This document shows, in pieces, positions 31,409-46,053 of a stretch of 64,000 nt of DNA. Origin of the DNA: Candidatus Poribacteria bacterium. Its GTDB lineage: Bacteria > Poribacteria > WGA-4E > PCPOR2b. A program made the translations under genes and the position numbers. Location: contig OZ242351.1 of NCBI GenBank assembly GCA_965208675.1, positions 3,040,001 through 3,104,000 on the forward strand. The letters run 5' to 3'. How positions within the stretch are numbered: position 1 is the stretch's first letter; every line of letters begins with the position of its first letter. The notes beneath the pieces are model-generated. The model was not told the origin of the DNA. It saw only the letters and a program-made list of their open reading frames with translations, and made no database searches.

Positions 31409-31768
31409 CGTATAGCCTCCCCTTCAATACACGCTATTTCTCGCCGTTCCTTAGCAATCCGTGGAAAATCGTATTATCAACATACGAATAATATCATAAC
31501 CCAACAGTAAGTATCAATCACAATGATCGAGAGTTCTTGTAGGTTGGGTTACCCGCCATCGCCCGCCATCTTTCCAGCCTCCCCTCCTTCCAGGCATTTT
31601 TCTTGCCCGCTTCTAATATAGAAAGTCTCGGCCGCCATTTGCCTCCTAGATTCGGATGGCGGAAGTTGACACCGCCACCTCCTTTTGCTAGTATATGACT
31701 ACCGAACGCATTAAAATCACCGTGCACCGAAAAAACTGTGTGCCGTGCCGCTAACGACTGACAACCCT

Positions 31769-34700
31769 ATGGGTGCAGAGCTAGAAACAACCACCGAACA
31801 CTCCGAGAATTTCCTCTCACTGGACCTTGAAGTCGGTGTCAAAGACCGCCGTATCCACGCCTTCGCAGCAATACGCCCAGATAGGGCGCAGCCACTAACG
31901 CGCCGCCCGTCGAGCAACGGATTGGACGCTGCATTGGCAGAATTAGACGAATTTGCCGACGGCGTAGATTTCCTACTCGGCCACAATCTTATCGATTTCG
32001 ATTTGCCCCACCTGCGAGCCGCAAACCCCAACTTGCGGCTATTAAGCCTGCCCGCGGTAGATACGCTCCGACTTAATCCTCTCGCCTTCCCCCGCAATCC
32101 GTATCACCACTTGGTCAAGCATTACCAAGACGGACAGCTCAAACGAGGGCGCATCAACAACCCCGAAATGGATGCCAGACTTGCTATGGAGGTCTTCAGC
32201 GACCAGCGGATTGCGTTAAGCAATACATCGTCCAATCTGCTGACCGCTTGGCATTGGCTGACCACGACTGCTGACGGCGAAGGGTGTAACAAGATCTTCG
32301 ATTCTCTGCGAGGTTCGCGAAGGCCGACGGACGTTGAAGCCTTTGACGGCATAAACACAATTCTGAGTGGGAACGCGTGCCAAACGCACACCCGCGAGGC
32401 GATAGCAAATGCAGACCGGCACGCCTGGGAGTTGGCTTACGCCTTGGCGTGGATTCCGGTGTCCGGAGGCAATTCGGTCATGCCGCCTTGGGTACGGCAT
32501 CAATTTCCCGGAGCCGGACGTTTGGTGCGCCAACTGCGAGACACCCCCTGCGCCGCGGTCAACTGCAACTGGTGCCGGCAACGGCACAACGCCCGGAGTG
32601 AACTTAACCGATGGTTTCGCTTTGCCGAATTCCGGGAAAAGCCAGACGATGATGACGGCAATTCCATTCAGCAGTCCATCGTTGAAGCTGTAATGGCGCG
32701 GAAACATGTGCTGGGAATCTTGCCAACCGGCTCCGGCAAATCGCTCTGCTACCAACTGCCGGCAATTTCGCGCTACGACAAGACGGGCGCCCTGACGGTA
32801 GTAATCTCGCCGCTGGTCGCCCTCATGGCTGATCAGGTCGCCGGGCTTGAACGTAAGGGCATCGGTTGCTGCGTCACCGTCAACAGACTGCTGTCGATGC
32901 CCGAAAGGGCGGATGCCCTGGATCGAGTACGTTTGGGGGATGCGGGCATCGTCCTGATTGCGCCGGAGCAACTTCGCAGCATCCCCTTCCGCCGAGCGTT
33001 AGAACAGCGCGAAATCGGCGCCTGGGTGCTGGATGAAGCGCACTGTCTCTCGAAATGGGGGCACGACTTTCGCCCCGATTACCGGTACGTGGGCCGGTTC
33101 ATCCGGGAAACCGCGGGGGAGCAGCCCGTGCCGCCTGTGTTATGCCTGACCGCTACTGCCAAACCCGATGTGAAGGCGGAAATTATTGACTATTTTCTTG
33201 ACAAACTCGACATCGAGCTGAATGTCTTCGACGGCGGCGCCCAACGAAACAATCTGGAGTTTTTGGTCGTGCGGACGAGCGGCGGTGAGAAGTTCGCTCA
33301 TGTACATCGGATTATTGCAGAACATCTACCGGTACAAAAACCGGGCGGCGCCATCGTGTATTGCGCCACGCGGCGACAGACTGAAGAGGTTGCAAACTTC
33401 CTGCAGGCGAATGAGACGAAAGCCGATTACTACCATGCGGGCCTGCCGCCGGAGACCAAGAAACACGTCCAACAAAACTTCATCAGCGGCGAGTTGCGAG
33501 TCATCGCAGCCACCAACGCCTTCGGCATGGGAATCGATAAACCGGACGTGCGGCTGGTCGTCCATGCCGACATCCCCGGTTCCTTGGAGAATTACCTTCA
33601 GGAGGCGGGGCGCGCCGGTAGGGACCAGCAGCCGGCGCACTGCGTACTGCTATACACTCAGGATGATGTCGAGCGCCAGTTTGGCATGTCGGCTTATTCT
33701 CGGCTCACATGGCGAGAAATCAACGGCGTCCTGAGGGCACTGCGTAATCTCGACCGGAGAAATCGGTTGAGCGGCGAGGTGGTAGCCACCGCCGGCGAAA
33801 TCCTACGAGCGGACGAGGACAACGCCTTTGACCGGGATTCGGCAACCGACGACACCCGCGTGCGCACCGCGGTGGCGTGGCTGGAGGAGGCGGAGTTGTT
33901 GAGTCGAGAGGAGAACCGGGTGCAAGTGTTTCCGTCCTCGCTGCGCGTGAATTCAGTGGAGGAGGCGCGCGCCAGACTGGAACGAATGTGTCACAGAAAT
34001 GACTACCGTAAACAACTAATGAAAATTGTCGAGAAGCTAATTGACGCTGACCCGGACGAAGGCATTTCCACAGACGAATTGATGGCAGCTTCCGGTCTGA
34101 CGCCAGAGGGGGTGCGAGGCGCACTCGACGACCTGGAGCAGTTGGGTATCGCAAACAACGACACCGTGTTGACCGCTTTCGTCCACGTAGGAGGTAAACA
34201 CTCATCACAAGATCGGTACACAAAGGCAGCAGAGTTGGAGCGTGACCTGATTGCCCTCCTGCAGGAGCTGGCTCCCGATATGGAAAAGGAGGATACCTCC
34301 ATGTTGCATCTCCGCGACGTCAACCAACGGCTTAAAGACGACGGTCATACCTACGCCCTGCCTGAACGCCTGTGGCGAATCCTCCGAAGTATCGCCGCCG
34401 ACGGACGGGGCGAGGGAAGCGGCGGCGGAAGTCTAGCTGTTCGGAAGCTTGACCCGGAAACTGTACGGGTGACGCTGCTGCGCGAGTGGAATGTGTTAGC
34501 GGAGATCGCTACGTTGCGCCGCCAAGCCGCGGCATGCCTGCTCGAACATCTTCTTTCCAGCCTGCCGACCGGCAGCCGAGGCACGGACCTGCTCGCAGAG
34601 ACAACGGTGGGGAAATTGCTAGCGGCGATTAAGTCAGACCTTATTCTTAAGTCAGACCCTATTCTGGCGAACCGAGTGAAGCGCCCCGAAAAACTCATGG

Positions 34701-36905
34701 AGCGCGCTCTGCTGTGGCTCCACGAGCAGGAGGTAATCCAACTAAATAAAGGGCTGGCGGTTTTTCGACCAGCGATGACCATCCACCTTCAGTCGGATCG
34801 CCGCGGTTTTGCGCGATCAGATTTTCAACCCCTCGATCTTTACTACGGCGAACAGATTCTGCAGATTCACATTTTAGCGGAATTCGCAATGCTAGGGCTT
34901 GGAGCGATAACTGACGCGCTGCGTCTGGCTATGGACTATTTTGTGCTTACCCGAGATAAGTTCCTACTACGCTGGTTGCGGGACAGAGAAGTTTCGCGGC
35001 AGACCACGCCGGAATCTTGGCGAACCATTGTCGAAAACCTGAGAAATCCCATACAACGCCGCATCGTGGCGGACGACCGGGAGCAGACGAACGTGCTGGT
35101 GCTCGCAGGACCCGGCTCCGGCAAGACGCGGGTGCTCGTGCATCGTATCGCCTATCTGATTCGCGTGAGGCGCGAGAACCCCCGCGGCATCTTGGCGCTC
35201 GCTTACAACCGGCATGCCGCCGTCGAAATCCGCCGGCGCTTAGCAGAACTCATCGGTGTCGACGCCCGCGGGGTGTTGGTGTTCACCTGCCACGCGCTCG
35301 CGATGCGGCTGGTCGGCGCCAGTTTCGAGGGACGCGCAAATCGCATGGATGACGAGGGTTTTAAGGAAATACTCCGCGATGCCGTGGCGCTGCTGCACGG
35401 CGAAGGGTTGCCGCCGGACGAAGCCGACGAATACCGCGCGCGCCTGCTTGCGGGGTTCCGCTGGATTTTAGTGGATGAGTATCAGGACATCGGCGAAGAC
35501 GAGTACGATCTGATTTCCGTACTGGCGGGCAGAACCCTCTCCGACGAAGATGACAAATTAAGCCTTTTCGCGGTGGGCGATGACGATCAGAACATCTACG
35601 CCTTCAACGGCTCCTCAGTCGAGTTTATCCGCCGCTTTGAGGAGGACTACCGCGCCCAACCCACCTTCCTGACCGGCAACTACCGTTCCACAGCCCGCAT
35701 TATCGCGGCTTCCAATGCGTTAATCGAGCCGGCGCAGCACCGCATGAAGACCGAGCACCCTATTGAGATCAACAGAGCGAGGCGGGATGAACCGCACGGC
35801 GGCGCATGGTCTGCGCTTGACTCGGTCGCCGGCGGGAAAGTGCAGATATTGCTTGTGGGCGATAATCTTATCGCCCAAGCGCAGGCAGTCGTCGTTGAGT
35901 TGAAGCGATTGTCCGATTTAGATCCTGACTGGGATTGGTCGAAATGCGCCGTCATCGCGCGCAAATGGCGTTACCTAGACCCGGTGCGCAGCCTCTGCGA
36001 ACTCGAGAAGATTCCGGTTCAGATGGCGAACGAAGACAACTTGAAAGTTTGGCATCTACGGGAAACCCGCAGCCTAGTCGAATGGCTGCGCTCGCAGGAG
36101 TCTCGCTTGTTATCAGGGGAAGAATTGAACAACTGGATGGACAACCTGCCCGCAAATCCTTGGACCGAACTGCTCCGCGAAGGCATATCAGAGCACACGT
36201 TGGAAACCAGCGGATCGGCAACACCGGCAAATCACTTCGTCGAGTGGCTGGCTGAATGGTGCCGCGACGTACGCCGCCGCCAGCGGGGGCTGCTGCTGTT
36301 GACCGCCCACCGCGCCAAGGGCTTGGAATTCGACCATGTGGTCGTATTAGAAGGAGGCTGGGATCGCGTTGACCGCGGCGAGGATGACGAGGATGTAGAT
36401 GCCCCGCGGCGGCTGTATTACGTCGCAATGACCCGCGCGCCTCACCCTTGCACTGGCGCGCTTTCCGGGCGAACACCGGCTGCAAGACGCCCTGCGGGGT
36501 AATCCCTCGGTGCTGTGCCAGGAGTCCGCCAAACTTCCACCGGCACCGCCGGACCTTGTGCAACGCTATAAGCGACTCAGTTTGGGCGATGTCTTCTTGA
36601 GTTTCGCGGGGTATAAGCCCCCCGAGAATCCCGTGCATCGGGATATCGCCTCGCTCTCTCCGGGCGATCCGTTGCATGTGCGCCTCGGGTCGAAGCGTTG
36701 GGAACTTCTTGATCGCAACGGGAATGTCGTCGGGCAGCTTGCCTCCGGATTCAACGGGCTTAACAACATGCGCTGCAACCGTGCTAAAGTCTGGGCAATC
36801 GTCGCCTGGAACCGCGACTATTCGGAACCCCAGTACCAACGCGGCATCCAACGCGATACATGGGAGGTCGTGGTGCCGGAGTTGATTTTCGAGCCGGATT
36901 CGTAA
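31769..36905 (+). pseudogene. RecQ-family helicase fused to a UvrD-like helicase, frameshifted near the 3' end
   Basis: PTGSGKS/DEAH/QEAGRAGRD and GPGSGKT/DEYQD/HRAKGLEF; after YVAMTRA (~36440) the shifted frame reads TLALARF... into ORF 36510-36905. Confidence 0.8.
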
Positions 36906-36991
36906 CCTTACCGATACCCCCGCATGCTGGTATACTTTCCATTTCACGATACGATTCAAGACCCGGGGGAAATGATTAATATTTACGCAAA

Positions 36992-37735
36992 ATGAATTCT
37001 TACAAATTCACAGATTATACATACTCGGAAATTAAGGGCTTCATTGAGGAAGGGTATTTGGCAATCTTACCGACCGGATGCACAGAACAGCAGGGCCCGC
37101 ACTTGCCGGTGGGTTTCGACACATGGTTCGCTGAGACCGTTGCTTTAGCGGCTGTACAGCACAATCGCGGCCGCGCCCTAGTGTTGCCGGCAATGCCATT
37201 TGGCCCAACCCCGGAACATTGTGGCTTCGGTTCAGGCTATGTCAACATTCCGCACCCGGTCCACGAAGAGTTCATCTATTTCGTCCTTGAATCGCTCGCA
37301 GAACAAGGTTTCAGCACCATCGTCGCCTGGCGAGGCTGCGGAGAGCATCGGTTACAGAGTACAGTAAACAAGTTCAACGCGAAATTTCAGAATCGATGTA
37401 CCGCCTGCCTTCCAGCACTTCCCTACCGGGATATTTGGCTGCGTGTAGCTGATCCCGCTATTCCGTGCGGTCACGCCGACAGCTTTGCGACTTCGATCGC
37501 TCTATACAAATGCCCGGAGATTGTTCGCGTCGACAAAATCCCTCCACCCAACACCGGTCAAGTTGACTGGAATGATCCGCATCTCGATTTTACGAAATAC
37601 TCAGAAACCGGTGTCATCGGTGACGCGACCAAAGCGAGTGCCGAATTAGGCAGTAAGCTTTGGAACGAGGTCGTAACGACATCAGCAGCAATAATCAGAA
37701 ATGCTGCCGTAAATTGTGCACCGAGTGGACAATGA
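36992..37735 (+). CDS. creatininase family protein
   Basis: GCTEQQGPHLPVGFD, HADSFATS, GVIGDATKAS..G. Confidence 0.88.
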   Translation: MNSYKFTDYTYSEIKGFIEEGYLAILPTGCTEQQGPHLPVGFDTWFAETVALAAVQHNRGRALVLPAMPFGPTPEHCGFGSGYVNIPHPVHEEFIYFVLESLAEQGFSTIVAWRGCGEHRLQSTVNKFNAKFQNRCTACLPALPYRDIWLRVADPAIPCGHADSFATSIALYKCPEIVRVDKIPPPNTGQVDWNDPHLDFTKYSETGVIGDATKASAELGSKLWNEVVTTSAAIIRNAAVNCAPSGQ

Positions 37736-37858
37736 GATGGATTAAACCGCCCAATTCCAAATCTTAAATCATCTGAACACTCCACTCACACTTCGGAGCA
37801 TAACAGGATTGTTGCCGCGGTCAAGGCGGGAGAGCCGCAAGCGACGTGAAAAAAAGTT

Positions 37859-37887
37859 TTGACAGAAATTGAGAGGAAGTATAAAAT
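37859..37887 (+). promoter_or_regulatory. sigma70 promoter
   Basis: TTGACA-N17-TAAAAT. Confidence 0.6.
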
Positions 37888-37958
37888 GCTTGTCGATCAG
37901 GGAATCCGAGCCTTCACTCGAATGCCCCTGAAGCTACCCGATATGAGGCCTCAAATCA

Positions 37959-37997
37959 AAAAGGGAGTTGTGCGTTTGACGTGCACATCCCTTTTTC
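37959..37997 (+). terminator. intrinsic terminator
   Basis: AAAAGGGAGTTGTGCGT-TTG-ACGTGCACATCCCTTTTT. Confidence 0.65.
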
Positions 37998-38117
37998 ATT
38001 ACAAATTAACGACGGCACGCGTATTTTTGATTACTACGGCTTGATACTTGTGCTAGAATTAGACGGCAACAAGTAAATCCCACCAGTTAATGGCTTTATA
38101 TCAACAAAACGAATCCC

Positions 38118-38990
38118 ATGCCAAAAATCCCGGTTCTGATTCTCTTTTTGATTTCCGTGTCGTTATGCTCAGCGGAATTAAGCGAGCCGCTATCGGTTGA
38201 AAGGTTGCTTGCCATAACCGAAAAAGAACTGGAAACGGAACTGCCAAAGTTTGATATTGTCTACATCAACATGGTCTGTGCACAGGGGTTGCCCGGCGCG
38301 CAAGCATTTGATATTCCAAAGGCTTTAGCAAAACTCGATGAATGGGCGAAACATATTCAACATGAAACCCAACGCCACGAATATCTGTTTCATCGAGATA
38401 AGGACTATTACAACGGCTCACTTGCATACTACCAGATTGAGATGATGGTGTCGGTCTTATCACAGGATATGGGGGTCAGGTATAATCCCGAACTGATTGA
38501 GTCTGACGCATTGTACGACCTTGAATCGACACGGTTCTATGCCGATTCAAGAGATGTGTTCCTTCATGGGTTGTTATCCCCGCGTCCGTGGGGAACTTGC
38601 GCCTCAATGCCTGTCTTGGTCGTTGCTATCGGTAGACGCTTGGGCTATCCGTTAAAACTAGTGCGCGCCAAAGCCCATCTTTTTGTGCGGTGGGAGTCGG
38701 AAACAGAGCGTTTCAACATTGAGGCGACAGGGCGAGGATGGAATCCTTATCCGGATTCGCATTATCGCCGGTGGCCGCATCCATTCACCAAAGCGGAAGA
38801 ATACGCCAACCGCTTTTTGAAATCGCTATCGCCGGCAGAAGCACTGGCGGATTTTCTGGGTCAACGCGCCTACTGTCTCAAGGAACATAAAAGAGATGCC
38901 GAAGCCAAAAAAGCGCATGTCAAAACTATCTGGATCTATCAATTGTTCAACGAAAGGAGCGGGCGAATAAAACGCCCGAACATGCTATGA
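38118..38990 (+). CDS. secreted transglutaminase-like (SirB1/Transglut_core2-like) protein
   Basis: signal peptide; GTCASMPVL..RRLGYPL..HLFVRW..FNIE (Cys-His-Asn/Glu). Confidence 0.75.
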   Translation: MPKIPVLILFLISVSLCSAELSEPLSVERLLAITEKELETELPKFDIVYINMVCAQGLPGAQAFDIPKALAKLDEWAKHIQHETQRHEYLFHRDKDYYNGSLAYYQIEMMVSVLSQDMGVRYNPELIESDALYDLESTRFYADSRDVFLHGLLSPRPWGTCASMPVLVVAIGRRLGYPLKLVRAKAHLFVRWESETERFNIEATGRGWNPYPDSHYRRWPHPFTKAEEYANRFLKSLSPAEALADFLGQRAYCLKEHKRDAEAKKAHVKTIWIYQLFNERSGRIKRPNML

Positions 38991-39826
38991 CTATGAACAC
39001 AGTTAAACGATTTACCCTACTGATACTACTGCTGACCTTTATCGCTTCACCCGTTTTAGAGGCCTATTATGACCCACACATCGGACGCTTTACACAACGT
39101 GACCCCGTAGGAGAAGGGGTGAACCACTATGTGTATACGGCGAATAATCCGATGAAGTTTGTTGACCCGACGGGCACTAGGATTGTGATATTGGGCTCCG
39201 CCGGCAAGGAAGTTACAATGGATAGCAGTGGCCTACATTTTCATACAGGTGGTGCTGGATTAAGCACTGAAGCGTCCATGTTGTATACAGGCATAACAGG
39301 TATGAGGACAATCGAAGCAGAAGACGGATCGGTAACGAAAAACCCCGATCTCAGAGACACTACCGCCGTTGGAAAAACTGTTATGGATGTCATCAGAAGC
39401 GACAAGACCGTTTATCTGCATTTTGATTCGTCTTTGCCTGATGCAATACTAGGTGTCACTGAATTTTTGAATACAGCCTCGAATGACAACATTTCGATTA
39501 GAATCAATGCCAAGAATGCCACCGGAACATTCGGAGGGTATTTACGATCAAGGAAAACGATTATACATGAACTGGTTCATGCAAACCAAGCGATAACCGA
39601 TCCCAGCACGTTTAGAAATAGAAGCTACTATAATGTCTATGACCTTGAATATCAGGCGTATGACATAGGCGCTCGATTTGCAGCCGAGGTCGGGGGACAC
39701 AATGCAACAGTGCTGGGTTACGTGCCACCATCCTATTTGCTAAGTAAGCAATTTAATCCTAATTCACTTACATATCATTACTATATTAGTATGGCGGCAC
39801 GAGAAACTGCAAGTCCATTCCGATAG
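38987..39826 (+). CDS. signal peptide + RHS core + HEXXH metallopeptidase domain (mini-RHS toxin-like) #1
   Basis: VLEA|YYDPHIGRFTQRDP..NHYVYTANNPMKFVDPTG; IHELVH...EYQA. Confidence 0.85.
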   Translation: MTMNTVKRFTLLILLLTFIASPVLEAYYDPHIGRFTQRDPVGEGVNHYVYTANNPMKFVDPTGTRIVILGSAGKEVTMDSSGLHFHTGGAGLSTEASMLYTGITGMRTIEAEDGSVTKNPDLRDTTAVGKTVMDVIRSDKTVYLHFDSSLPDAILGVTEFLNTASNDNISIRINAKNATGTFGGYLRSRKTIIHELVHANQAITDPSTFRNRSYYNVYDLEYQAYDIGARFAAEVGGHNATVLGYVPPSYLLSKQFNPNSLTYHYYISMAARETASPFR

Positions 39827-39886
39827 GGCTAAAAACACAGTGGCGGGGGCTTAAACCGAAAAACGTCCAACGCAAGGAGATACATC

Positions 39887-41338
39887 ATGAAACGCAAGGG
39901 AGCCTTGATTCTTTTTCTTTATGCGACAGTCGGTCTGATTTTGGGCGCTTCAGCATCGGAGAGACTAGAGATAGAATCGCTTATCACACAGCTTGGCGAC
40001 GAAGCCGTAGAGGTTCGTCACAATGCGTCTATACGTTTGGCTCAAATTGGCGCCCCAGCCGTGCCAGCATTGGTGGGCGTATTGCCGGAAGCAGATCGGA
40101 AACTCGCTTTAAGTATTGTTGAGACCTTGACGCTCATGGGCAGCGACGCCGAGGCCGCTGTATCAGCATTGATAGAAGCATTCAGAAAACCGAATTTTTC
40201 TGTCTACAGGAGGGAAATGTTTGTGGAGTTTCACAATAGTTGCATTGAAGCTCTTGCTGCAATTGGGTCGCCTGCGGTGCGTCCGTTGGTAGAGGCTTTA
40301 AATGATGTCAATGAATATACTCGTTATCATGTAGCATCGGCGCTAGGGTGGCTGGGGTCAAAAGCCCAAGAAGCCGTGCCTGCGTTAATACAGCTACTGA
40401 AGGATAAAGACGATGGGGTGCGGCAAGCCGCTGCGTCAGCATTAGGTAGAATGGCGCAACCTACCGCAGTAGATATAATGCTAATACCGCTTGAGGACTT
40501 GCTGCCCCCGCGTAGAAAGCCCGCATTAAGCCAGACGAATCATCCGGCCCAAGCGGCGGTTCCCACTCTGATAGAAATGTTGGGAGATGAGGATGAGAAC
40601 GATTCGGTTCGCGTCGCAGCAGCGGGGACGTTAGGCAGCATTGGCGATGTTACTGCCGTCCCAGCGTTGATAACCTCGTTGAATGACATAAACGATCGAG
40701 TCCGTTCAGCAGCAGCGTCCGCGTTGGGCAAAATTGGCCCTCCCGCCAATGCTGCTGTTCCCACACTGATAAACATATTAAAGAAAGGTCTATACGAAAC
40801 GCAAAATGTTCGAGTGTCGATTGTGCTAGGATTGGGCGGAATTGGCACTCCTGACGCTCTGAATGCGCTGATAGACGCTTTAAGTGATGAATCAACTTTC
40901 ATCCGTAAAGAGGCAGTATACGAGTTAAGCAGAATTGGCGAGCCTGTTGACAAAATCGTTCCACCTTTACTGGAAGCATTGGCGGATACGGATCAAGGTG
41001 TACGCGTTACAAGCTCTATGGAGTTAGCCAGAATCGGCGAACCTGCCATTCCTTTTCTGATTGAGGCATTGAGCCACGAAAAAGTAGAGGTGCGCAAGTG
41101 GTCAGCCTTCGCCTTGTCAGAGATAGATGGTAACATTCAAGCTGCCGAACCCGCATTGATACAAACATTAGGAGATAAAGATAAAGATGTTCGGCGGTAT
41201 GCAGCTTACGCATTAAAAAGAATTGGAACTCCTGAAGCGATTAAGGCTGCCGTCCCTGTGTTGGAGAAAGACGACAAGCCTATCATATCAACACGCATAA
41301 AAAAGCAACTGAAGCATCGAAAGCCGTCGGGGTTTTGA
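39887..41338 (+). CDS. secreted HEAT/PBS-lyase repeat protein
   Basis: signal peptide; repeated AVPALI..L.D....VR..AA.ALG. Confidence 0.9.
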   Translation: MKRKGALILFLYATVGLILGASASERLEIESLITQLGDEAVEVRHNASIRLAQIGAPAVPALVGVLPEADRKLALSIVETLTLMGSDAEAAVSALIEAFRKPNFSVYRREMFVEFHNSCIEALAAIGSPAVRPLVEALNDVNEYTRYHVASALGWLGSKAQEAVPALIQLLKDKDDGVRQAAASALGRMAQPTAVDIMLIPLEDLLPPRRKPALSQTNHPAQAAVPTLIEMLGDEDENDSVRVAAAGTLGSIGDVTAVPALITSLNDINDRVRSAAASALGKIGPPANAAVPTLINILKKGLYETQNVRVSIVLGLGGIGTPDALNALIDALSDESTFIRKEAVYELSRIGEPVDKIVPPLLEALADTDQGVRVTSSMELARIGEPAIPFLIEALSHEKVEVRKWSAFALSEIDGNIQAAEPALIQTLGDKDKDVRRYAAYALKRIGTPEAIKAAVPVLEKDDKPIISTRIKKQLKHRKPSGF

Positions 41339-41470
41339 AAAACGTGCACGCACAGAAGTAGCCATCAACAAATGATGGATATTATCTGTCATTAGTTATA
41401 GACTCTTAATAGTGTGATTGGCAAGTAGCAGTGGACACTGCCACCTGAATCTATCAATTATTCGATAATA

Positions 41471-42655
41471 ATGAACACCTACAAACGGGCTTTCATTACC
41501 TGTCTGTATTTGGTGAGCATGGCAAGTATTGTGTGTCATGCTCACGATCTGGACACCGCATCGTTAATTCAGCAACTTGAACATGCTGATACTGATGTCC
41601 GAAAAAGCGCAAGAAAAGCTCTCATCGAAATGGGCGAAGCAGCGGTGCCGGCATTGGTTGTGGGATTAAACCACGAAAAAGCCACGGTGCGTGAATATGT
41701 TGTGTATATACTGCATGATATTAGAAAGCGTGTACCTCACAATAAAGACATTGTGCGTGCATTGGTTAAAGCATTAAAAGATAACGATGAAAAGGTGCGC
41801 GATTGGGCATTGGTTAGTTTTTTGGACTATTCGGAATTACCGCCGGAAGTTATTTCGGGCTTAGTCCAGTTACTCTATTATGGATCTCCCTTCTATCACC
41901 CCGGTGCCAGCGAGGTTTTAGTCAAGGATGAGGGCGTATGGAATCCTCAAGCTGCTGCTGCCTTAATCGAGGCATTGCACAGTAGTGAATGGTCGCTTCG
42001 CTTCGGCACCGCCCTCGCTTATAGTTTTGGAGATGGACGTAGACAACTACGCTTGGAGTTTCCCAATAAACGCAATAAAGAGAAGCCGCCTTCCCCTGGA
42101 CTTAAAACAATTGTTGTGACGCCTTATACTGGGCAGCCGCCGCCGCCCGGAACTACAAAAGCGGTGGTTTCTACTTTAGTTGAAGGATTAACCCATCCAG
42201 ATTGGAAGGCACAGAATCTCGTGATTTTTTACTTGAAGGGATACGCCCATGACTTTGAGGAAGCGAAAAACGCGCTTGAAGCATTGCCACCCTTCGGTAT
42301 CATATTCCAAACTATCAGAGACGGGGATACAGTTAGGGATTCCGATGTTCTCGATTCATTGAATACCGATGGTATCACTTTCAAATTCAACCGTTCCCTC
42401 TCAGGTTACTTACTGGGGGAGATTACAATCAGGCCAGTTACTGAAGGCATTTATGGCGAACCGCTGGGTTGGAATGTTGAAAGGGGCAGCCATTCAATAA
42501 CGATAACCCCCCCAGAAGGGAAAGAACTGGTGAAAGAGCAGGATTATACGATTCAACTCAGAGAATTTGAGGATGCTCTGGGGTATCATGAACTCGGTGC
42601 CGAAATCGAGTTTTCGACAGAGGTTCCGATCCGGAGTTCCGGACACGCCCATTAA
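41471..42655 (+). CDS. secreted HEAT-repeat + C-terminal Ig-like domain protein #1
   Basis: signal peptide, HEAT repeats, ITFKFNR...SITITP...YTIQL..EIEFST. Confidence 0.85.
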   Translation: MNTYKRAFITCLYLVSMASIVCHAHDLDTASLIQQLEHADTDVRKSARKALIEMGEAAVPALVVGLNHEKATVREYVVYILHDIRKRVPHNKDIVRALVKALKDNDEKVRDWALVSFLDYSELPPEVISGLVQLLYYGSPFYHPGASEVLVKDEGVWNPQAAAALIEALHSSEWSLRFGTALAYSFGDGRRQLRLEFPNKRNKEKPPSPGLKTIVVTPYTGQPPPPGTTKAVVSTLVEGLTHPDWKAQNLVIFYLKGYAHDFEEAKNALEALPPFGIIFQTIRDGDTVRDSDVLDSLNTDGITFKFNRSLSGYLLGEITIRPVTEGIYGEPLGWNVERGSHSITITPPEGKELVKEQDYTIQLREFEDALGYHELGAEIEFSTEVPIRSSGHAH

Positions 42656-42712
42656 AAAAACTAACTTGAACCTTACATTTATCCGGATTCATCAACTATT
42701 CAACGAAAGGAA

Positions 42713-43540
42713 ATGACTATGCAAAGAGTTAAACGATTTACCCTTGTAATGCTGCTGCTAACCCTTATCGCTTCACCCGTTTTAGAAGCCTATTATGACC
42801 CACACATCGGACGCTTTACACAGCGAGACCCCGCCGGAGACGGGGTGAACCACTATGCGTATGCGGCGAATAATCCGATGATGTTTATTGACCCGACGGG
42901 GATGTATATCGTCCTGCCGGGCGGCACCGAAATAAGAAGCGTCCCTGAACAAGTTGATGGTCGCTATGTAAAGCCCGATTTGACAGGCAATGATAGTGTG
43001 GTTTGGGATTCAATATTCACAGGGGGAATAAACGGAACAGGAATCGCTGGAAGTAATGCTGCGGGCGGTATTGTGACCGATATTATCGAAAGTAGCACGC
43101 CTGTGCATATAAGGATTACAGAAAACCTCACACCTGGGGCGGTTGCCGATGCCACACTAGATCCTAATAACGGTTCTATTAGGGTAAGAATCAATGAAGG
43201 TGCCATGCCGCCGCAACCTCAATATGAGGGACAGAGGGCTCCGTTGACGATGGCTCTGGTTCATGAATTTTCTCATGTCCATGACTTTATGAAGATACCA
43301 CAAGACTTCATATATGGTCAACCATACCATTTCAGTTATGTTACGGAGATGAAGGCTTTTGATCTTGAAGCCCGGTACGCGATAGAAATGGATAGAGCAG
43401 ATGGAAATTATAACCCCGCCGGCTGGTATAGCGGACATACCGGCTTTAACGCACACCAACTTACGAACTATGGTTCCGTGGCCTATTACGGGCGACTTAA
43501 TAGATTGGCACTTAAGGCAATGCTAGGAACTTGGCGATAA
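42713..43540 (+). CDS. signal peptide + RHS core + HEXXH metallopeptidase domain #2
   Basis: N-terminus nearly identical to 38987 up to DPTG, then divergent; VHEFSH...EMKA. Confidence 0.85.
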   Translation: MTMQRVKRFTLVMLLLTLIASPVLEAYYDPHIGRFTQRDPAGDGVNHYAYAANNPMMFIDPTGMYIVLPGGTEIRSVPEQVDGRYVKPDLTGNDSVVWDSIFTGGINGTGIAGSNAAGGIVTDIIESSTPVHIRITENLTPGAVADATLDPNNGSIRVRINEGAMPPQPQYEGQRAPLTMALVHEFSHVHDFMKIPQDFIYGQPYHFSYVTEMKAFDLEARYAIEMDRADGNYNPAGWYSGHTGFNAHQLTNYGSVAYYGRLNRLALKAMLGTWR

Positions 43541-43557
43541 TCTACAGGGGGAAATCC

Positions 43558-44655
43558 ATGACCAAGCTCAAACGGGTTGCCCTAATCTTTCTATATTTGG
43601 TGAGCATGGCAAGCATTGTATCTCACGCTCAAGATAAGGACATCGCGTCGTTAATTCAGCAATTTAACCATAGAGATGAGGACGTAAAACAATACGCACG
43701 TAAATCCCTCATCGAAATGGGCGAAGCGGCAGTGCCTGCTTTGATTGTGGAATTAAACCACGAAAATGACAAGGTGCGCGAGAAGATTGTGGACATACTG
43801 TTTTTTATTAAGAATAGTGTTCCCGACAACAAAAACATTGTCCGTGCATTGGTTAAAGCCTTAAAAGATGATAGCGCCACAGTGCGTTCTCGGACAATGA
43901 GTGGCTTCTTGTACGATTCGGAGGAATTAGTGCCGGAAGTTATTTCGGGTTTAGTACAGGCACTCTATTATGGATCGCCCTTCTTTGGTCACTCGGATGC
44001 TTGCCATGTTTTACTCTGGGGTGGGGGTAAGAGGAATCCTCAAGGACAAACTGCCTTAATCGAGGCGTTGCATAGTAACGAATGGTCGCTTCGTTATGGT
44101 GCCGCCAGTGCTTATGGATTTATGATTAGACCGAACCGCTACGGGAAGTTAAGAGAGAAGCCTCGCCCTGAAGTAAAAAAAGCGATGTTTTCCGCGTTAG
44201 CTGAAGGATTAACCCATCCTGGTTGGAAGACACGTGAACACACGATTATTATTTTGAAAGGCCTCAGATCTGCCTTTGATGAAGCGAGACAAGCACTTGA
44301 AGCATTGCCGGCCTTCGGTATCATATCCCAAACTATAAAAGATGGACAGCCGGTTGTTGAAATGGATCCCGATGCTCTCAATTCATTGAATACTGATGGC
44401 ATTACTTTCAAGTTCACCCGTCCAATTCACGGGAATTGGACGATTACAATCCAACCCGTTGATGCCGAACCGCTGGGTTGGCATGTTGAAAAGAGTAGCC
44501 ATTCAGTAACCATAACCCCAAAAAAAGGGCAAGAATTGGTGAAAAACCATCGCTATAGAATTCAACTCAGAGATGTTAAAGACATTCTGGGGAATCAAGT
44601 CGATGCCGAAATCGAGTTCTCAACAGAAGTGCCGCTCATCAAACTCTCCCATTAG
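43558..44655 (+). CDS. secreted HEAT-repeat + Ig-like domain protein #2
   Basis: clear paralog of 41471-42655. Confidence 0.85.
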   Translation: MTKLKRVALIFLYLVSMASIVSHAQDKDIASLIQQFNHRDEDVKQYARKSLIEMGEAAVPALIVELNHENDKVREKIVDILFFIKNSVPDNKNIVRALVKALKDDSATVRSRTMSGFLYDSEELVPEVISGLVQALYYGSPFFGHSDACHVLLWGGGKRNPQGQTALIEALHSNEWSLRYGAASAYGFMIRPNRYGKLREKPRPEVKKAMFSALAEGLTHPGWKTREHTIIILKGLRSAFDEARQALEALPAFGIISQTIKDGQPVVEMDPDALNSLNTDGITFKFTRPIHGNWTITIQPVDAEPLGWHVEKSSHSVTITPKKGQELVKNHRYRIQLRDVKDILGNQVDAEIEFSTEVPLIKLSH

Positions 44656-44695
44656 AGTAAAGCCCCTAAATGTGAAGCCGTGGACACTGGCCTTG

Positions 44696-45549
44696 CTACT
44701 TGCCATACTTGAATCTCGCAATCGCCCCCGTTCTGCGAGTTCCGCACGGGCATAATGCGCCGGCATGGAAGGCGACTTCCAACGCCCCGCAGTTTGCATA
44801 TCAACGACAGTGGCGCCGGCACGGGCTAACGATACTGCCAAACCGACACGAAGCGAATGCCCACTGATAAAGCCCTCGACGCCGGCTTCGCTGGCCCAAC
44901 GCTTGATAGCGTTCCTAGCCCCCTCGGCAGATAGCCGTCCCTTGCCAAGATGTTGTTGGAATCTTACCCGCCGAAACAACGCACCTGATTCGATTCCCGC
45001 CTTTCTACAGTAATGTTTTATCACCCGGTGCGTCAATTCGCCGATGTAAAGCGCGGCGCCCTCACCCTCTTGATCGGTCTTACTCTGCCTGACTTCCAAC
45101 ACGCCGTCGTGGATGTCCTCTACATTGACCGCGACCGCCTCGGATACCCGGAGCAGACAATCGCTCATGAGGTTTATCAGGGCAGAATCACGCAGACCTG
45201 CAAGCGTCTTACTGGCTTCCGCAAATGAACATACCCGCTTGACTTCCTGCCATGTAAGCCCCTGGACTTGACCGCGGCGACGGCATGTGAAATTGTGGAC
45301 GGCGATTTGCCGGCTTCGTGAAGTGCCGTGATGTATTCCGCCAGTGCCGCATCATGGGGGCGATATAATCCTTAGCTTGTCGATATGGAACGCCTCAACC
45401 CGACCGTCGAACCACTCACTGAGATTCGCCAACGCCCGACCATACGCCTGAATCGTATTCTCGGAGACTCCAGAACGTATCAACAACCTTGTAGAATCGC
45501 TGACCGAGACCGCCTTTTTACCCTGTTCAGCTTGTGCGATCTCATTCAT
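44696..45549 (-). pseudogene. degraded Cre-like tyrosine recombinase
   Basis: GLRDSALI..LLRVSE, SKTDQ, GHSLRVG, GRWKS..M..HY; N-terminus (SENTIQAY) in a separate frame; 1-nt loss in a G-run at ~44727 removes the GAIARFKYGK* end. Confidence 0.85.
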
Positions 45550-45940
45550 CTTTGTCCCCCTTATGTGCTTTCCCCAGGACTCTTAAATCTCCGTCCTCAT
45601 CCCTGAGAACAAGCATCCCGCCGTGTTCACCGGCGCCAAGTCCGGCCTGCAATACCCCGCGCTCGCCATAAACACTGACCCGCCCACCCTGTTCACCAGC
45701 GTGAAGGAGCGCCCCCGACTTTCTGTCCTCTTTGCCATAGACTGTGACAACGCCGCCGTGTTCACCGGCACTGAGAATCACATGCGCTTCGCCCAACATA
45801 TCCACGACCTCTAGTTCAGTACACCGTATCATGGCAAAGGTATCGCGTTGTGCCGTGCCGGACGATACCAGCAACGCCGTGATTAAACTGCCTACTATAC
45901 CGCCGATAATACCACTAATAATTTGCTTTTTCGTGTCCAC
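45542..45940 (-). CDS. TM-anchored beta-repeat protein (AGE[HQ]GG x3)
   Basis: AAGGAG RBS; paralog of 1645-2046; internal GCCGGTGAACACGGCGG repeats. Confidence 0.7.
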   Translation of the reverse strand: MDTKKQIISGIIGGIVGSLITALLVSSGTAQRDTFAMIRCTELEVVDMLGEAHVILSAGEHGGVVTVYGKEDRKSGALLHAGEQGGRVSVYGERGVLQAGLGAGEHGGMLVLRDEDGDLRVLGKAHKGDKDE

Positions 45941-46053
45941 AGTGATCTCCTTTTAGGTTGGGTTAGAGATGAACATCCTTCTTACTTCTGATAAAATCAT
46001 TCAATTGACGCAACAAAAGGTTTGCATCATGACTTTCCAACCATCCCGAACCG

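Follow-up and report, generated by a model that had tools for sequence, protein, structure and literature searches.

The window analysed here is a 64,000-nt stretch of a poribacterial genome (G000; contig OZ242351.1, positions 3,040,001-3,104,000, forward strand). It contains a cassette in which a gene for an exported transglutaminase-like enzyme precedes a gene for a short, putatively secreted protein that carries part of the core of Rhs toxins without their YD shell, here called a mini-Rhs. Six open reading frames, all on the + strand, lie where the first-pass annotation of this DNA had placed them: the enzyme (38118..38990, 290 aa); mini-Rhs A (38987-39826, 279 aa), which overlaps the enzyme gene by ATGA; a HEAT-repeat protein (39887..41338, 483 aa); a HEAT and Ig-like protein (41471..42655, 394 aa); mini-Rhs B (42713..43540, 275 aa); and a HEAT and Big_5 protein (43558..44655, 365 aa from the ATG). 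Each of the six proteins begins with a positively charged segment and a hydrophobic stretch, features from which signal peptides are predicted. The conserved unit is the pair of genes at the start of the cassette, i.e. an exported enzyme and then a signal peptide, the last ~38 residues of the core and a variable tip, and this system is conserved across at least four phyla. We regard it as a polymorphic toxin system whose architecture is new and whose processing probably includes a new step.

In both minis the predicted signal peptide (38987..39064 in A, 26 aa with the predicted cut after ...LEA; 42713-42790 in B) leads directly into a core remnant, YYDP...DPTG, that begins at residue 27 (39065..39175 and 42791-42901). 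TIGR03696 recognizes the two proteins at 48.0 and 50.8 bits (cut-off 32.5), with a match limited to model positions about 37-76 of 76, which is the second half of the core, and a Pfam scan of both found no RHS/YD repeat (no PF05593). The near-identity reported for the two gene starts is borne out, since the two share 89% identity over their first 188 nt, a repeat that ends within the DPTG codons (39174 and 42900). An A-x-A motif before the core is found family-wide. Residue -1 is A, G, S or C, and residue -3 is A, V, G, S or T, in 45 of 45 minis, a set that omits four minis without a pattern match to the second core motif. A hydrophobic stretch lies ahead of 77 of the 79 cores that are not preceded by Arg, compared with 1 of 57 Arg-preceded cores. 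The signal peptides are strongly diverged, yet these features are kept. Some minis are broken, and ordinary orphans with an Arg-containing core were seen in three genomes (G013, G017, G018); the homologues as a whole are not mere 3' fragments of full-length rhs genes.

Several candidate features and matches were discarded. Descent of the signal peptide from the upstream half of an Rhs core, which the spacing would fit, was ruled out at a DNA identity of 22-26%. Longer core loops (26/45 minis) are not a hallmark of this group, as they also occur in 2/7 Arg-preceded cores of the same loci. The pattern matches in L019 and L021 are decayed orphans, and the cores in G216 and G121 are Arg-preceded.

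The mature mini aligns from residue 651 of YenC2 and residue 2104 of the teneurin-like protein, which puts the predicted signal cut at the position of the catalytic Arg (Arg650 of YenC2, which we take to be the same residue as Arg2103 of the teneurin-like protein). In the two minis of the cassette the -1 Ala of the signal takes this position, and the full Arg-Asp-Asp autoprotease site was not found in them. Both Asp residues are kept in mini-Rhs A, and the first core Asp is present in 44 of the 45 minis. In six loci from four Planctomycetota genomes only the core half beside the cut site is kept and the first Asp is lost; the enzymes of these half-core loci form one long branch (support 91/87), which meets the outgroup and leaves the root unsure. 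In a structural model of the mature mini-Rhs B the tip is confident and the core unfolded, core residues 1-35 having a predicted local distance difference test score (pLDDT) below 50 when modelled alone. The minis had been proposed to be self-cleaving. Unaided self-cleavage is doubtful: the Arg would be lost at the predicted signal cut, the first Asp is missing from one lineage, and the core, when on its own, is predicted to be disordered. According to the accessible parts of the respective accounts, the core region of shelled proteins seals the cocoon (PMC8765631), and mutation of the conserved teneurin-like Arg2103 lowers autoproteolysis (PMC13018210).

Beyond DPTG each mini continues into a tip with an HExxH...E zincin-like domain (39176..39826 in A). 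The first-pass annotation had described two different HEXXH domains; both are indeed zincin-like, but they are not unrelated, being 29% identical over 117 aa (E 1e-7) and thus members of one family. The structural neighbours of tip B are zincin metallopeptidases (best Z 7.4, below the level that distinguishes families), and the neurotoxin light chains among its top neighbours (Z <8, among many zincins) indicate no specific kinship; a Foldseek search at E up to 0.001 gave no match for the enzyme model or the mini-B model. Metallopeptidase tips are a property of the local minis and not of the system in general: the 44 tips compared fall into 41 families, and HExxH occurs in 10 of the 44. When 52 tips were compared with Pfam, three scored above the cut-off; PT-HINT with colicin D and peptidase M76 occur among the tips, DUF922 was matched below the cut-off, Ntox24 and M91 were matched weakly, and most tips had no Pfam match.

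Tips are exchanged at a defined position. In G002, a genome of the same genus, the enzyme is 99% identical, and the DNA match ends at the DPTG codons, beyond which a family-B tip stands in the place of tip A. In two orthologous slots of G000 and G002, the identities of upstream region, signal, core and tip are 98/97/85/35% and 100/100/89/22%, respectively. Genome G000 contains five Rhs cores, belonging to three minis and two full-length Rhs proteins, the latter encoded ~600 kb from the window locus, and both G000 and G002 have full-length Rhs genes that carry a tip of the B family (51% identical to tip B in one case). At the sequence level these comparisons demonstrate exchange of tips at the core DNA, both among minis and with full-length rhs genes. 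A conserved N-terminal trafficking part is thus joined to exchangeable C-terminal domains, the combination that defines polymorphic toxins, and the description of a shell-less, polymorphic Rhs-core system that would be exported by Sec stands.

A query of metagenomes with the enzyme, using the best 80 of 440 confirmed matches, gave 79 loci. A mini-Rhs lies next to the enzyme in 66 of these, eight loci being too short and five being without one; after clustering at 90% identity, 51 of 60 have a mini, five are too short and four are without. As a control, the 1504 remaining windows of these loci were scored, and 29 counted as a mini, many of them being further minis. Among sampled genomes, the enzyme is present in 6/401 Verrucomicrobiota, 8/401 Planctomycetota and 2/176 of its own phylum. 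Reading by eye places 21 of the 24 genome-sampled copies, three of which were seeds of the search profile, before a mini; the other three are accounted for by a contig that is too short, a core without signal and a full-length Rhs. A scan of species genomes for an Ala-preceded core returned nine stretches. Three of these are from Poribacteria and two are decayed orphans; in the other four (Planctomycetota, two Verrucomicrobia, Hydrogenedentes) the enzyme lies directly before a signal and core mini with an unrelated tip. In the reverse test, Rhs cores were found in 235/401 Verrucomicrobiota genomes, and among the matches listed (150 of 932) signal and core were confirmed in five genomes, including four of the six enzyme-positive ones. 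The linkage to the transglutaminase-like gene is therefore conserved, and this gene, first taken for an accessory, is instead the defining partner of the system. In L047 and L057 the enzyme gene and a signal and core mini lie on opposite strands, converging, ~880 bases apart.

The enzyme matches PF13369 (SirB1/Transglut_core2) with 29.2 bits (cut-off 23.5), in agreement with its earlier description as transglutaminase-like. Its model (pLDDT 92.9) comprises a helical N-terminal part, a transglutaminase core and a TPR-like end, a layout shared with SirB1-type proteins and menin. Menin is the best structural match (Z 12.1, root mean square deviation 4.6, 212 residues aligned); bacterial transglutaminases (4xz7, Z 10.4; TglA, Z 9.6) and N-acyltransferases are among the nearest active folds, and the LapG structure 4fgo matches at Z 7.3. 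The putative catalytic triad, Cys161-His187-Glu202 in the window, is kept as C-H-E/D in 23/23 genome-sampled copies and in 120/121 and 142/144 database homologues; these counts are the informative ones, as invariance of the Cys in the metagenome loci was built into the search pattern. Further Arg residues outside the triad are near-invariant. Canonical SirB1 lacks the Cys, with Pro in its place in the SirB1 of G007, whereas the subfamily described here appears from its sequence to be exported and active. Many homologues look membrane-anchored. The family is large (1333 clusters at 50% identity, E up to 1e-30), its gene context having been checked for a part, and the role of bacterial PF13369 proteins is stated as unknown in the accessible portion of PMC10318531.

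Among 264 homologues scanned, eight are direct fusions of enzyme, core and tip. They form one clade, 69-93% identical to each other and at most 61% to others, in which the tips are almost wholly unrelated. The eight fusions (P0079, P0157, P0176, P0178, P0179, P0181, P0192, P0197) have no visible signal peptide. In L085:144-2033 and P0145 the enzyme frame continues without a stop into signal, core and tip, which may reflect read-through or a sequencing error, and P0138 and P0152 contain two tandem copies of the enzyme domain. Prediction of a complex of enzyme and core scored 0.45 against 0.01 for the best control, with a contact agreement of 79% or more and a partner pLDDT of 43 or higher; the mark used is reached by 116/157 solved and 2/215 mismatched pairs, and passes at or below 0.60 comprise 18/157 solved pairs and both passing mismatches. 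This model lends weak support to a link between enzyme and core.

Taken together, the half-core loss, the conservation of fold and triad, the fusions and the complex prediction favour the view that the core serves as a leader read by the enzyme. In this proposal, the mini-Rhs would be exported by Sec, and signal peptidase would leave ~38 core residues N-terminal to the variable tip. At the DNA level the core remnant is, as the comparisons show, the homology box for tip exchange with minis and full-length rhs genes. At the protein level it would be a leader recognized by the Cys-His-Glu enzyme, which the gene immediately before it encodes and which would be exported along with the mini. The enzyme would bind the core in place of the lost YD shell and, as a trans-acting processing enzyme, cut after DxxG to free the tip. 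The next gene would encode tip-specific immunity, as its position and co-occurrence suggest; at the present locus, HEAT and HEAT-Ig proteins may guard the periplasm against zincin-like tips. We consider it very probable that this is a real system in which the enzyme and the core cooperate. For a chemistry of cleavage after DxxG, with release of the tip in trans, we see an even chance.

A number of observations weigh against this proposal. Both Asp residues are kept in most minis and would not be needed by a pure leader, although gene conversion with full-length cores could have preserved them. The eight fusions and mini L120 retain the Arg although their enzyme is intact, and the enzyme is therefore not simply a stand-in for this residue. 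By analogy with other members of the fold, which also covers transglutaminases, acyltransferases and amidases, proteolysis may not be the sole possible chemistry. As only three tips pass the Pfam cut-off, most tips are toxins by presumption. A third recurrent neighbour gene family was not found across the loci. Finally, G007 (99% complete) has a mini and no enzyme of this family, the fragmented genome G402 has a mini with no enzyme found, and one enzyme paralogue of G000 precedes a full-length Rhs. In the full-length Rhs directly after the second enzyme copy (G000:C1:2460520-2460900, - strand) an insertion of two residues shifts the core Arg, and a similar core is found in L014; this one case fits an enzyme that serves Arg-less cores.

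The retained Asp residues would be explained if the enzyme were a scaffold that folds the core as the YD shell does and supplies an Arg in trans, upon which the core would cleave itself and the triad would serve otherwise. The near-invariant Arg residues of the enzyme would suit this role, and menin, its best structural match, is a peptide-binding scaffold according to the accessible part of PMC10318531. Against this, the first Asp is absent from the six half-core minis, and exceptions to the conservation of the triad are very few; we consider a scaffold rather unlikely. A further alternative is a covalent anchor or modifier that acylates the mini or cross-links it to a carrier, which might be a lipid, part of the cell wall or a surface molecule. 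Possible sites are the N-terminal amine that signal peptidase exposes and a Gln, Asn or Asp of the core, and the tips would be displayed and not set free. The transglutaminases and N-acyltransferases among the closest active folds, the very precise placement of the new N-terminus and the membrane-anchored look of many homologues are in keeping with it. The half-core minis, however, differ in their N-termini, the fusions have no free one, and the constant part is the stretch just ahead of the known Rhs cut site; an anchoring role is thus unlikely.

The two genomes with minis and no enzyme found would be less surprising if minis were loaded in trans into full-length Rhs shells, or were mainly a silent reservoir of tips, while the enzyme served the Rhs locus generally. 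The enzyme-positive genomes examined do carry long Rhs frames or Rhs ends as well, tips are common to minis and full-length genes, and the broken minis would be expected of a reservoir. Yet Rhs cores are far more frequent than the enzyme in Verrucomicrobiota (235 against 6 of 401 genomes), the diverged signal peptides keep their features, unlike a silent cassette, the enzyme precedes a mini and not a full Rhs in nearly all copies, and the window locus lies far from any full Rhs. We therefore regard loading or storage as improbable, and retain the proposal of a core leader read by the enzyme.

The three HEAT-repeat partners all match HEAT_2 (E 9e-74 for the first), and the Ig-like tail assigned to the last of them matches Big_5 with 27.8 bits (cut-off 23.6), as do three of six aligned tails. 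The first would by its position be a candidate immunity protein for tip A, the last a candidate cognate immunity protein for tip B, and the HEAT and Ig-like protein between them a candidate for a spare immunity protein against the tip-B family. In the Poribacteria loci seen, every zincin-type mini has HEAT genes after it, and this pattern, together with the presence of both Asp, speaks for the earlier model of unaided self-cleavage in which HEAT solenoids substitute for the cage. Linkage to HEAT genes is lineage-specific, however, with no HEAT homologue in 105 loci outside the Poribacteria. The HEAT-Ig gene follows the tip B family in 5/5 cases, two of which are full-length shelled Rhs proteins; an immunity gene would behave in this way, whereas a substitute cage would not be expected to. 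With the Arg absent and the core predicted to be disordered, the cage model is very improbable; judging from sequence, the HEAT genes look like immunity genes. More widely, the gene after the mini varies from locus to locus, has a hydrophobic N-terminus in 23/34 cases, and co-varies with the tip in sequence comparisons.

The minis resemble the Rhs/YD toxins (YenC2, TccC3, RhsA and teneurin-like proteins) in the C-terminal core with its cut-site motif, the variable tip after DxxG, the sharing of tips and the adjoining immunity-like gene. They differ from these in lacking the YD shell, in retaining only the second half of the core, in a signal that ends at the Arg position and in having a separate dedicated enzyme. 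Orphan rhs-CT modules likewise combine short core homology for tip exchange with arrays of tip and partner genes, whereas minis bear a trafficking signal, as far as the accessible parts of PMC4436062 and PMC3239186 describe the former. In the accessible part of Zhang 2012 (PMC3482391), inactive transglutaminase domains are fused N-terminal to an RHS-repeat array, and transglutaminase tips are also described; the tie between this fold and Sec-exported Rhs toxins is common to both systems, but here the triad is intact, the enzyme is usually encoded by a separate gene, and repeats are lacking, likewise in the fusions.

The MafA-MafB-MafI loci of Neisseria, in which MafA presumably holds the position of the partner gene, follow the same plan of partner gene, signal, conserved part, variable tip and immunity; we take the N-terminal domain of MafB (DUF1020) to be unrelated, and the Maf partner presumably is not an enzyme of transglutaminase-like fold. 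LapG is a trans-acting processing protease of transglutaminase-like fold, and we know of no protease of the LapG or McjB type that reads an Rhs core. Both resemble the enzyme in cutting a partner precursor with a papain/transglutaminase fold, and differ from it in Pfam family and substrate. McjB is described, in the accessible portion of PMC10318531, as a transglutaminase-like leader peptidase in the processing of lasso-peptide precursors, and MafB, in that of PMC4436062, as having a signal peptide, a conserved N-terminal part, a variable tip and immunity. In the literature searched, with subscription papers and supplements outside its scope, we found no account of the pairing of enzyme and mini-Rhs, in line with the earlier remark that the architecture was not recognized as described.

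Whether these loci represent a distinct and widespread class of Planctomycetes-Verrucomicrobia-Chlamydiae (PVC)-type and Poribacteria lineages, in which an active menin/SirB1-like enzyme has replaced the shell and reads the core as a leader to release the tips, we consider evenly poised. If so, this would be the first substrate for PF13369, an autoprotease motif would have been turned into a recognition tag, and hundreds of uncharacterised toxin domains would be released in this way. Rhs biology rests on a shell and a self-cutting plug; here only the last 25-38 residues of the plug are kept, exported and paired with an enzyme. The PF13369-type family would gain a testable substrate and a structural link to the peptide-binding architecture of menin, the enzyme would be a simple marker gene for locating many unknown antibacterial domains in uncultured bacteria, and short 'RHS core domain proteins' would not all be silent orphans.

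The cassette lies in a variable island (36971..46035) that is missing at the same site in the same-genus genome G001, where matches stop at window position 36970 and restart at 46035, only 25 bases apart, giving an island of ~9 kb. A broken tyrosine recombinase (44620..45490, - strand) adjoins the cassette, perhaps only as a neighbour; it covers positions 33-168 of 172 of PF00589, and a stop and a shift of frame interrupt its 5' part, in agreement with the dead integrase reported there. The cassette is AT-richer than its left flank, as had been stated (46.8% GC versus 58.6%), but hardly so compared with its right flank (47.8%) or the genome (49.2%), in which 11% of 748 windows of equal size have a GC content as low as this. 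Short-read contigs (runs X1/X4, possibly from the source sample, so that agreement checks sequence accuracy only) cover 37500-45400 piecewise, and the longest of them shows 0 differences. A joint of 39004-42735 in these contigs was considered as a recombinant and ruled out, as its source is the third mini, at another place in G000.

Upstream of the operon, the best of 18 Sigma-70-like sites (37859..37887, +; TTGACA-17-TAAAAT, 11/12, a consensus match only) is followed by ~100 bases that close with a terminator-like hairpin (inverted repeat I6, 37954..38000, +) ahead of the first gene, a possible attenuator; an Rfam scan upstream of the first gene gave no credible family match. The final ~60 bases of the enzyme gene (38927-38986) reappear upstream of mini-Rhs B (42680-42712), and likewise ahead of a secondary mini near 14300 in L005, which suggests that cassettes duplicate together with the end of the enzyme gene as a leader.

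Elsewhere in G000 (G000:C1:2446000-2482000, - strand), and also in L007-L009, full-length Rhs proteins with signal peptides are encoded behind a cluster of secretin, PilN-like and GspC-like genes and a gene for a conserved ~400-aa signal-peptide protein without a Pfam match. These Rhs genes are followed by long arrays of Ig-like lipoprotein, SMI1/KNR4 and HEAT genes, and the genes ahead of them may provide a type II-like route dedicated to Rhs export in this lineage. To the left of the island, a gene with RecQ-like and UvrD-like helicase domains, named from motifs only, occupies window positions 31745-36905 (58.6% GC) and is split near 36500; it is absent at this site in G003 and whole (1720 aa) in G002. 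A creatininase-family gene (PF02633) lies at 36992-37735, inside the island of the cassette.

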